A stretch of 64,000 nucleotides of DNA from Felis catus (Eukaryota), in NCBI RefSeq assembly GCF_018350175.1, contig NC_058384.1:68076001-68140000 (forward strand), in the 5' to 3' direction. This document shows positions 22,559 to 30,545 of the stretch, in pieces (the stretch's first letter is position 1; every line of letters starts with the position of its first letter). The translations under genes were made by a program, and so were the position numbers. Below the pieces are notes generated by a model. The model was not told where the DNA came from, did no database searches, and worked only from the letters and a program-made list of their open reading frames with translations.

Positions 22559-22744
22559 TCAATCCAGCAGTTCCTTGATGCACCAGCAGCAGAGGAGGAT
22601 GTAGGCAACTTCCTTCAGGGTCTGCTGCAGGCCCTCCCATCCTGTGCCCGTCTTCATGACCGGCACCTGGAACCCAGTGCCCCACAGGGCCCTTCTGAAG
22701 GAGAAAGGCAGGGCCTGGGCGAGGGGCTGTGTCCGGGGCTGCAT
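22559..22744 (-). CDS. LENEP: Lens epithelial protein LEP503, 61 aa, single coding exon
   Basis: MQPRTQPLAQALPFSFRRALWGTGFQVPVMKTGTGWEGLQQTLKEVAYILLCCWCIKELLD closely matches human LENEP as recalled. It sits in the syntenic position between FLAD1 and ZBTB7B. Confidence 0.93.
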   Translation of the reverse strand: MQPRTQPLAQALPFSFRRALWGTGFQVPVMKTGTGWEGLQQTLKEVAYILLCCWCIKELLD

Positions 22745-22779
22745 ATGGGCTGCAGCTCTGAGGTGCACAGAGCTGCCTC

Positions 22780-22900
22780 CCGGGCCTTTTATCAGCAGCG
22801 TCCCCACCCCCTCAGACCTCATGACTATAGGGACAAAGGCCCCGGGGTCTAGCACAGGGAAGGTTCTGGGCCCAAGAATGGGCTGAGTCAGCCTCCAATG
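22780..22900 (-). promoter_or_regulatory. LENEP promoter: TATA-like GATAAAA, palindromic MARE/AP-1-like site and CCAAT
   Basis: The minus strand reads TGCTGATAAAAGG about 45 nt upstream of the ATG. GGCTGAGTCAGCC at 22881-22893; CCAAT at 22895-22899. Confidence 0.5.
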
Positions 22901-23312: not shown

Positions 23313-28019
<4,707 letters not shown>

Positions 28020-28349
28020 GGTCCTGCCTTCTCTGCCCCTCTGCAAGGCCCTCCAGTAGCCACCCAGGGCCCCAAATAGGGGTCGAAAGCACGGGAGTCG
28101 CGCCAGGTCTACAGGGCACTGGGGGCCATAGCCTGGGAACAGGGGGGTCCGGGGTCAAGGGAACCTGGAGGAGCCAGAAAGGACATTGGGGGAGAGCAGG
28201 AGTGCATGTTCTTTTTTCCTTAGAGGGAGACCTCGCCGGGCCCTTGACAAGCGACTCCTTTATCCCTGCCTTCAACGGACGTGTTCTCACCCCATCCCAG
28301 CCTCTTCACAAGCTTGGCTCTGGTCTCCTTAAAGCGTCCTGCTCTCCCG

Positions 28350-28900
28350 AGCACCTACCACTTTACGTAGGTCTCCTGCGCGCCGAGCTCGGCCCCCCCT
28401 GGCCGGCGACAGCCCGGCAGCCTGCACCTTTAAATATCTCTCCTCTTTGGGGACCGGTCCCTTTAAGCGTCTCGACCCCCCCCCCCCCCCCCCCCGCCTT
28501 TAAACGCGGCCCCTCCCTCCGCCGCGGGCCGAGCTCAGGCGCCGGGCCCGCCGGGGCCCGCACCCTTTCTGGCCTGCAGTCTCCGTCCCCGCCACCCCGC
28601 CCCCGCCCGCCCAGCTGCCCCGGGTCCCCACCTGCCTTCCCGGCCGGCGCCCTCCGCTCCCGCACGGCCCCGGGCGGCTTCCGCACGCAACGTCCCGCCT
28701 TGGATCGCGCCTGCCACGTCAGTTGGCCATCTCGGCTGTCGCTCAGACTGCCTCCAAGGGCCCACGGGTGCAGGCGGCCGTCGCTCGCCAGCCCCAGCCC
28801 GGGGGCGGGAGCAGCGCGGGGTTGTTATGGGCGACAAGCACGTGGTCACCCTCACCCGGAACTGCGGGGGCGGGGCCGACGGGGGGGGGGACCTCGGCTG
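28350..28900 (-). promoter_or_regulatory. FLAD1 CpG-island promoter and 5' non-coding exon region
   Basis: CpG-dense, with GC boxes, TGACGTGG on the minus strand at 28714-28721 and a CACGTG E-box near 28849. Candidate donor TG|GTAGGT near 28358 and acceptor CTCCAG|GTT near 28165. Confidence 0.65.
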
Positions 28901-29146
28901 CTGCTCCTGGTGCTGGCGGGAAAGGGAGGTGTGATTCTAACCTCGGTCCCGTTTTCGGGTTCTTGTGTGCAGTGCTAGCGGTCTTTAACCCCGACTCGAA
29001 TTCTAGGCAAATGGGATTTATCTTGTAGCGCATGGCCCTTCGAGGGACACCAAGAATCAGCATTGGCTGTGAAGTAGGGAGAGCTTGGAGAGGACTTTTT
29101 AGTGCGTGGAACTTTCATTTATTTTTTTCTTTTTAAATGTTTATTT

Positions 29147-30545
29147 CTTTTTTTAAGTCCTTCCCTGTCAGCAATTATTTTTTTATTAATTCATTTATTG
29201 TTTAATTTACATCCAAGTTAGCATATAGCGCAACAGTGATTTCAGGAGTAGATTCCTTAGTGCCCCTTCCCCATTTAGCCCACACCCCTCCCACCACCCC
29301 TCCAGTAACCCTGTTTGTTCTCCGTATTTAAGAGTCTTTTATGTTTTGTCCCCCTCCCTGTTTTTATATTATTTTTGCTTCCCTTCCCTTTTGTTCATCT
29401 GTTTTGTCTCTTAAAGTCCTCATATGGGTGAAGTCATATAATTTTTGTCTTTCTCTGACTAATTTCGCTCAGCATAATACCCTCCAGTTCCATCCACGTA
29501 GCTGCAAATGGCAAGATTTCATTCTTTTTGATTGCCGAGTAATACTCCATCATATATATAGACCACATCTTCTTTATCCATTCATCCTTCGATGGACATT
29601 TGGGCTCCTTCCATCCTTTGGCTGTTGTCGATAGCGCTGCTGTAAACGTAGGGGTGCGTGTGTCCCTTCGAAACAGCCCACCTGTATCCCTTGGATAAAT
29701 ACCTAGTAGTGCAATTGCTGGGTGGTAGGGTAGTTCTACTTTTAATTTTTTCAGGAACCTCCACACTGTTTTCCAGAACGGCTGCACCAGTTTGCATTCC
29801 CACCAGCAGTCCACATCCTCACCAACGTCTGTTGTTGCCCNNNNNNNNNNNNNNNNNNNNNNNNNNNNNNNNNNNNNNNNNNNNNNNNNNNNNNNNNNNN
29901 NNNNNNNNNNNNNNNNNNNNNNNNNNNNNNNNNNNNNNNNNNNNNNNNNNNNNNNNNNNNNNNNNNNNNNNNNNNNNNNNNNNNNNNNNNNNNNNNNNNN
30001 NNNNNNNNNNTGGATTATTTATTTTTCGGGTGTTGAGTTTGACAAGTGCTTTCTAGATTTTGGATACTAACCCTTTATCTGATATGTCGTTTGCAGATAT
30101 CTTCTCCCATTCTGTCGGTTGCCTTTTAGTTTTGCTGATTGTTTCCTTCACCGTGCAGAAGCTTTTTACTTTGATGAGGTCCCAATAGTTCATGTTTGCT
30201 TTTGTTTCCCTTGCCTCTGGAGACACTTGAGTAAGAAGTTGCGATGGCCAAGATCAAAGAGGTTTTTGCGTGCTTTCTCCTTGAGGCTTTTGATGGCTTC
30301 CTGTTTTACATTGAGGTCTTTCATTCATTTTGAGTTTGTTTTTGTGTACGGTGTAAGAAAGTGGTCTGGGTTCATTCTTCTGCATGTTGCTGTCCAGTTT
30401 TCCCAGTACAACTTGAAGAGACTGTCTTTATTCCATTGGATATTCTTTCCTGCTTTGTCAAAGATTATTTGGCCGTATGTTTGTGGGTCCATTTCTAGGT
30501 TCTCTATTCTGTTCCATTGATCTGAGTGTCTGTTTTTGTGCCAAA
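29147..30545 (-). mobile_element. 5'-truncated carnivore L1 (ORF2 C-terminus plus 3' UTR), nested in a SINE tail
   Basis: Minus-strand translations [63 protein letters not shown] and WHKNRHSDQWNRIENLEMDP are L1 ORF2 motifs. AATAAA plus A-tail near 29178-29199. TSD AAATGT(T/G)TATTT at 29135-29146 and 30546-30557. Confidence 0.93.

Follow-up and report, generated by a model that had tools for sequence, protein, structure and literature searches.

Non-AUG presequences are known from the yeast genes GRS1 and ALA1. Yeast also has a FAD synthase, Fad1p, whose single gene serves the cytosol and the mitochondria, as we propose for FLAD1; in Fad1p, however, a 3' UTR element, and no alternative start, is held responsible for the dual localisation. 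Human FLAD1 encodes FADS1 (587 aa) and FADS2 (490 aa). The cat gene is the same one, its AUG product being the FADS2 orthologue, and the leader considered here corresponds to FADS1 residues 69–97. On the other hand, translation of FADS1 begins farther upstream, at an AUG of an mRNA that retains an intron; its proposed 17-residue signal lies elsewhere, and its frame is broken in the cat. According to a 2020 review (PMC7432027), FAD synthesis in mammalian mitochondria is an old and unclosed debate; reviews report mitochondrial localisation of FADS1 and a predicted 17-residue targeting peptide and, in muscle and neurons, the transcript of isoform 1 together with a 65-kDa band. A 2026 paper (PMC13564092) still describes two FLAD1 splice isoforms. 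The answer on mitochondrial FAD synthesis decides which way SLC25A32 carries flavins, a direction left open by a 2022 review (PMC9311062).

The closest described start is human. The supplement of Ly et al. (2025, Mol Cell, PMC12718117) gives two FLAD1 starts, the AUG at chr1:154983985 and a CUG at 154983898, 87 nt apart. The CUG, in the row named 'Truncated_CUG_chr1_154983898', is listed as the strongest non-annotated in-frame start of its class in harringtonine profiling of HeLa cells, where sites are given as the strongest per class. Because the stretch lies within FADS1, the site is classed as a truncation. The sites were called with RiboTISH, according to the preprint; the call for the human CUG comes from one Ribo-seq data set, and its frame test is also satisfied by the main ORF. 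Like the cat site described below, the human CUG lies 87 nt before the FADS2 AUG and would open a 29-residue leader with a predicted transit peptide. It is a table row only, for which no localisation test, conservation analysis or link to an upstream ORF (uORF) was found; FLAD1 is not named in the main text, and the six supplementary files have no FLAD1 row with a GFP test. FLAD1 is also absent from two catalogues of non-AUG extensions (PMC9789052, in 11 of 13 supplement files; PMC11317171, in one file). With its human counterpart listed in that table, the CUG start is somewhat less new. Our search found no published statement of a CUG-start FLAD1 model, but subscription journals and several supplements lay outside it and prior publication is possible; neither the argument across species nor the coupling to the uORF nor the demotion of FADS1 turned up in print, whereas non-AUG mitochondrial signals as a class are already known.

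FLAD1 and its 5' leader in the cat

FLAD1 is an intact, single-copy felid gene. It lies on the minus strand of the window, the stretch of 64,000 nucleotides of cat DNA analysed here. From its AUG, the coding sequence (23313..28019) comprises seven exons, six GT-AG introns and 490 codons plus the stop, with no internal stop; the orthologues are named FAD synthase and the Pfam domains are PF00994, PF24102 and PF01507. Felid orthologues match the first FLAD1 exon over its full length. A 522-nt query from the 5' region has one match in the cat genome, and the same query revealed no processed pseudogene there showing the spliced leader. With 490 aa the product has the size of FADS2 and is its orthologue. 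Its AUG (28017..28019, read in the sequence as ACC-ATG-G) corresponds to the simple start of 40 of the 53 proteins returned by the protein search.

Upstream of this AUG the frame is open for 45 codons and contains no in-frame ATG. It is bounded by a TGA (28155..28157, minus), which results from a one-base frame offset near 28145 relative to the primate, cetacean and pangolin frame. Inside it lies the candidate CUG start of a mitochondrial isoform (28104..28106, minus; GAC-CTG-G, with G at −3 and +4). The 29-codon N-terminal extension that it would open (28020..28106, minus) has six Arg and one Glu, with an Arg two residues before the Met, and is a predicted cleavable mitochondrial presequence. 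A second in-frame CUG (28065..28067, minus), again flanked by G at −3 and +4, would add 16 residues to the protein. All 13 rows of alignment A1 have Leu at this codon, and no start-site evidence was found for it; it may be a minor start with a 16-residue leader. The window's own frequency predicts 0.24 good-context in-frame CTG codons in 46 codons, and two are seen. A CTG in good context is thus no rarity in itself; what carries the case is the comparative and published evidence, not the context. A hairpin promoting CUG use was looked for downstream of the CUG and not found (z = 0.02; 93 of 200 shuffles as stable).

A six-codon uORF, MAPSAL, out of frame with the extension (28109..28129, minus), starts at GCT-ATG-G with G at −3 and +4 and ends 2 nt before the CUG, which follows its AUG by 23 nt and its last codon by 8 nt. 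Farther upstream, a leader intron joining exons 1a and 1b (28165..28358, minus; GT...AG) is proposed from the protein junction in cetaceans (P0007/P0035) and the consensus sites. Its splicing would remove the AUGs at 28295, 28207 and 28186, and, provided that transcription begins below 28730, the spliced leader would then have the uORF AUG as its first. The presumed promoter and exon 1a fall in a CpG island (28200..28999, CpG o/e 0.75–0.90). From the AUGs at 28207 and 28186 the uORF frame is open down to the uORF stop (28109–28207, minus), and an intron-retaining mRNA would carry a longer uORF of 25–32 codons; in the records P0001, P0024 and P0025 the corresponding frame runs into the extension.

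The FADS1-type open frame from an upstream AUG to the FADS2 Met does not exist in the cat. It is broken twice, by a stop after M-G at 28295 and by the stop at 28157, and is offset relative to the cetacean and primate frames. The AUG-Gly-stop (28287..28295, minus) is probably the remnant of the human FADS1-type start, judging from the M-G and its position. An earlier note on this DNA had described most of this anatomy, and the description stands: the ATG (28019–28017) and the CTG (28106–28104, G at −3 and +4) are where it placed them, the frame is open back to the TGA (28157–28155) over 45 codons with no in-frame ATG, the MAPSAL uORF (AUG 28129–28127, stop TAG 28111–28109) ends 2 nt before the CUG, a recount again gives six Arg and one acidic residue in the 29, and the human-type upstream frame is indeed broken, 28295 reading M-G-stop.

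Several other features of the neighbourhood may be mentioned. A long run of G (about 28476–28497, minus) falls in what is presumably the first exon or promoter; it may be a G-quadruplex or an assembly stutter. Directly upstream of the CpG island is an A+T-rich stretch (about 29180–29840), in our view resembling the 3' end of a carnivore L1 element. Just downstream of FLAD1 is a short ORF (22559–22822, minus), presumably LENEP, whose end is matched by the C-terminal part of P0005, a fused model from a whale (Pfam PF15221). In the models P0013, P0014, P0077, P0078 and P0153, from four rodents and the bowfin, an upstream small protein is fused to FLAD1. It carries PF01111 in P0013 and P0014 and is presumably CKS1B; these fusions are probably prediction artefacts showing old synteny.

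Conservation of the extension and possible conservation of the uORF

We examined 16 sequences, 15 of them with a readable extension, the partial P0029 being dropped: cat, pangolin, two cetaceans, donkey, the 587-aa FADS1-type record, loris, jerboa, Apodemus, Microtus, Sigmodon, Thomomys and three further records. P0015, in which two frame changes cancel each other within the extension, was regarded as probably a sequencing error. A profile search meant to add species yielded 16 proteins, all of them already in the set. The CUG is known as DNA in the cat and reported for human, and the other species were compared as protein, by the Leu. A metagenome scan for mammalian DNA with the CUG context matched 80 stretches; the one confirmed was an unrelated GC-rich, microbial-looking sequence and was rejected.

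The extension is 29 aa long in 13 of the 15 orthologues, 25 and 28 in the other two. Its net charge is +3 to +6 in all 15 (+5 in cat), and the residue two before the Met, where an MPP motif (Arg at −2 or −3) would have its Arg, is Arg in twelve, Lys in two and Gly in one. Leu occupies the CUG position in 15/15 extensions, with Asp before it in 14/15 and Ala or Val after it. Beyond about 28145, going upstream, the orthologues run into three different frames of the cat sequence, and their far N-termini are unrelated. Identity to the cat extension is 23–26/29 outside the rodents, except for the loris (17) and one record (19). It is 15–20/29 in the rodents, versus 24–25/27 for the rodent FADS2 N-terminus; the FADS2 start as a whole retains 23–26/27 across the orthologues. 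The near-identity to the human FADS1 residues before the FADS2 Met, stated in the earlier note, proved to be 25/29 against the 587-aa FADS1-type record P0004, and the comparison bore out its claim that the peptide is conserved despite the loss of the upstream AUG frame. The pangolin proteins P0017, P0064 and P0069 have an in-frame Met inside the extension, nine codons before the FADS2 Met.

Neutral simulations at assumed distances of 0.2, 0.3 and 0.45 substitutions per site gave mean identities of 20, 17 and 13.5 of 29, with 95th percentiles of 24, 21 and 18, respectively. With these assumed distances, the rodent identities overlap the upper neutral range. The constraint on the extension, as seen in these alignments, thus appears modest, as is common in targeting peptides. 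The chance that the frame would stay open by neutral drift was set aside because of the ascertainment bias of the protein set and the assumed indel rate: a species appears in the set only if its gene model spans the stretch, and broken extensions are invisible, the set being biased to open frames.

In 13 of 13 orthologues (P0062 and P0014 left out) the main-frame residues are compatible with the AUG and the stop of the uORF. Three different compatible changes affect the AUG and two affect the stop (Tyr to His or Asn, Gly to Asp, Val to Ile or Leu), and of random single changes 6 of 12 at the AUG and 9 of 14 at the stop also pass this test. Residue compatibility is therefore suggestive only of uORF conservation. 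In hamster cells, Ribo-seq called a 6-aa AUG uORF in Flad1 (score 0.59, 19 footprints, FLOSS good; PMC11452709), and the gene and the length suggest that it is orthologous to that of the cat. In the pocket gopher Thomomys bottae (P0016, P0061, P0062) the six residues of the uORF are annotated in frame with the extension, either a natural AUG-started presequence or an assembly indel or error.

The uORF bears on a less attractive explanation, namely that the 87 nt are an ordinary 5' leader kept for RNA-level reasons (uORF spacing, splicing, slow evolution by a CpG island). The human peak would then be spill-over from the uORF, and mitochondrial FAD would be due to SLC25A32 or to co-purifying FADS2. 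Since the uORF adjoins the CUG, a spill-over peak at the human CUG is possible. The earlier note had proposed to look for an initiation peak at the orthologous CUG: one is listed for human, with the HeLa harringtonine start, but not for hamster, where the Ribo-seq ORF calls have no Flad1 extension, although they have no row for the annotated ORF either (PMC11452709). The same explanation can draw on the rodent identities near the upper neutral range, on the ascertainment bias of the protein set and on an ambiguous N-terminus at Thr99 (see below), and SLC25A32 transport is an accepted alternative, its direction being open (PMC9311062). However, it does not readily account for the retention of length, charge and the Arg or Lys at −2 where the upstream frame is not kept, nor for the identities of cetaceans, primates, equids and pangolin (23–25/29), which are at or above the simulated 95th percentile at assumed distances of 0.2–0.3. 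Moreover, fish and swans have an AUG version of the two-start design. We therefore regard an ordinary leader as unlikely, though as the most serious competitor of CUG initiation.

Predicted targeting signal and the source of the mitochondrial enzyme

The extension has the charge and length of a presequence: it is net positive, has few acidic residues and, with 25–29 residues in the orthologues, lies in the range of 20–40. The 18-residue hydrophobic moment is 0.60 in the cat, a value equalled or exceeded by 86 of 1000 shuffles, and 11 of 15 rows have at most 50 of 1000 shuffles as high, the rows being related sequences and not independent. With 11-residue windows, 416 of 1000 shuffles are as high in the cat, and none of the 15 rows reaches 50 of 1000 or fewer. 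The leader has two or three early prolines and many glycines, and its moment is weak in cat, loris and Apodemus. DeepLoc2.1 assigns the human CUG form to the cytoplasm and mitochondrion, with a transit peptide at 0.78 against 0.50 for the AUG form, which it assigns to the cytoplasm; the cytoplasm score of the CUG form is also 0.50 (PMC12718117 supplement). The same supplement lists the CUG form among the mitochondrial differences, with a change from cytoplasm to mitochondrion.

These features are relevant to the possibility that CUG initiation is real and the product is not a cleaved matrix enzyme, but low-level leakage or a protein of the mitochondrial surface or elsewhere, or that the functional start is the CUG at 28067. 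The DeepLoc cytoplasm score of 0.50, the early prolines, glycines and weak moments, the second CUG with the same context and an invariant Leu, and the pangolin AUG nine codons before the Met are all in line with it. On the other hand, the published start is the first CUG, and conservation of the R-P-L-F-G segment, which precedes the second CUG, equals that of the rest of the extension. Hence we consider this possibility improbable.

Protein data come from mitochondria of HEK293T cells, where a free Thr99 N-terminus of FLAD1 was found in 5/5 wild-type samples, with no other FLAD1 row (PMC13672106). It is unchanged in the ICP55 knockout, no Met98 peptide is listed, and acetylated peptides were excluded from the data set. 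Thr99 fits cleavage at or near R-T-M followed by loss of the Met, and equally well cytosolic FADS2 after Met removal. Thus the FLAD1 N-terminus seen in these mitochondria has the size expected of FADS2 and fits either route.

The textbook source of the mitochondrial enzyme is FADS1, and it may be argued that the AUG-started 587-residue protein from the intron-retaining mRNA is the mitochondrial form wherever it is present, that the 29 residues are kept as its part and that felids have lost it. The localisation, the 17-residue peptide and the muscle and neuron transcript and band reported in reviews (PMC7432027) favour this. Against it, there is no common long N-terminus upstream of the uORF: those of primates, cetaceans, equids, jerboa and pangolin are either unrelated or shifted in frame there, and in the cat the FADS1 frame is dead and the 29 codons are intact. 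MitoFates gives 0.249 for the 587-aa FADS1 and TargetP2 is negative (PMC13672106); residues 1–17 of P0004 include three basic and two acidic ones. Olsen 2016 (PMC4908180) reports no FADS1 transcript in two fibroblast and one blood RNA-seq samples, and a 60-kDa band not confirmed by MS. The accepted mitochondrial isoform therefore rests on a transcript missed by one RNA-seq study and on a frame lost in the cat. We find the textbook view very unlikely. Since the FADS1 frame is dead and its transcript and presequence gave negative results, yet FLAD1 is found in HEK293T mitochondria, we count this for the CUG route. A conserved, CUG-initiated mitochondrial FAD synthase is probably real; we put the probability at about 0.7. 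The reading of the earlier note, CUG initiation on the spliced isoform-2 mRNA, is supported.

A proposed mRNA with two starts, and its relatives

In the arrangement that we propose, one spliced FLAD1 mRNA of the isoform-2 type would yield two enzymes. Most ribosomes would reach the AUG at 28019 and make cytosolic FADS2, while a minority may start at the CUG at 28106, in the cat as in human, and make a 519-residue precursor. The basic 29-residue leader would take it along the presequence pathway into the mitochondria, with cleavage probably after R-T (Arg at −2) and perhaps later loss of the Met. The mature mitochondrial form would be almost identical to FADS2, which would explain its absence from blots. 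Ribosomes translating the uORF would stop 2 nt before the CUG, too near for an initiator tRNA to be re-acquired, and most of them would reinitiate 89 nt downstream, at the AUG. As they would skip the CUG, it would be fed by leaky scanning, and the uORF would cap the mitochondrial share. The import, cleavage and uORF steps are drawn from general knowledge of scanning, reinitiation and presequences. We hold it probable that a minority of starts at the CUG gives an imported and trimmed precursor, and that the uORF limits the mitochondrial share. Non-AUG starts are repressed as stringency rises in mitosis, according to a preprint, and this offers a way to regulate the split between cytosol and mitochondrion.

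If the CUG start on an abundant mRNA is real, it would explain a mitochondrial enzyme in mammals that do not have the textbook form. It also makes the old localisation debate testable by one codon change and lets mouse models address it. Further, positions c.205–291 (numbering derived from c.292 = Met98) would be coding on the main transcript, which would alter the reading of FLAD1 variants in riboflavin-responsive myopathy. ClinVar has p.Met98Val, of uncertain significance, at the human orthologue of 28019 (PMC12718117 file 6); it abolishes the start codon of FADS2 and would spare the CUG form.

A deeper history is suggested by 150 distant representatives. Of the 40 with a readable N-terminus, seven have a basic, acid-poor leader of 24–39 residues before a second Met, 23 are short and ten are other. 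AUG-started basic, acid-poor leaders of 25–29 residues occur in walleye and other percids, swordfish, Muraenolepis and two swans; the echidna and garter snake models have no basic leader. Therefore the two-start design appears to predate mammals, with a Met at the first start in those annotations. A bolder reading, which we offer as speculation, is that placental mammals exchanged the ancestral presequence AUG for a cassette of uORF plus CUG, which sets and also switches the share of mitochondrial FAD synthesis, the switch responding to changes in start-codon stringency or initiator-tRNA supply. The 587-residue FADS1 would then be a lineage-restricted by-product, and the mature mitochondrial enzyme indistinguishable from FADS2. 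Variants in c.205–291, including silent-looking ones at Leu69, would remove only the mitochondrial form and p.Met98Val only the cytosolic one. Taken jointly, these propositions are doubtful.

The FLAD1 of teleosts and swans resembles the mammalian one in having a basic, acid-poor leader of 25–29 residues before the second Met, at the matching position. It differs in that the leader starts at a Met in RefSeq-type annotation, and the likeness is one of design, not of established leader homology. Among the genes treated by Ly et al., TRNT1, GARS1, PNPO and AURKAIP1/MRPS38 are similar to FLAD1, as one mRNA has two starts and the upstream one adds or alters a mitochondrial signal (PMC12718117). However, the CUG extension of MRPS38 masks the signal instead of supplying it, and FLAD1 differs from all four in that its upstream CUG abuts the stop of a six-codon uORF that is apparently conserved.
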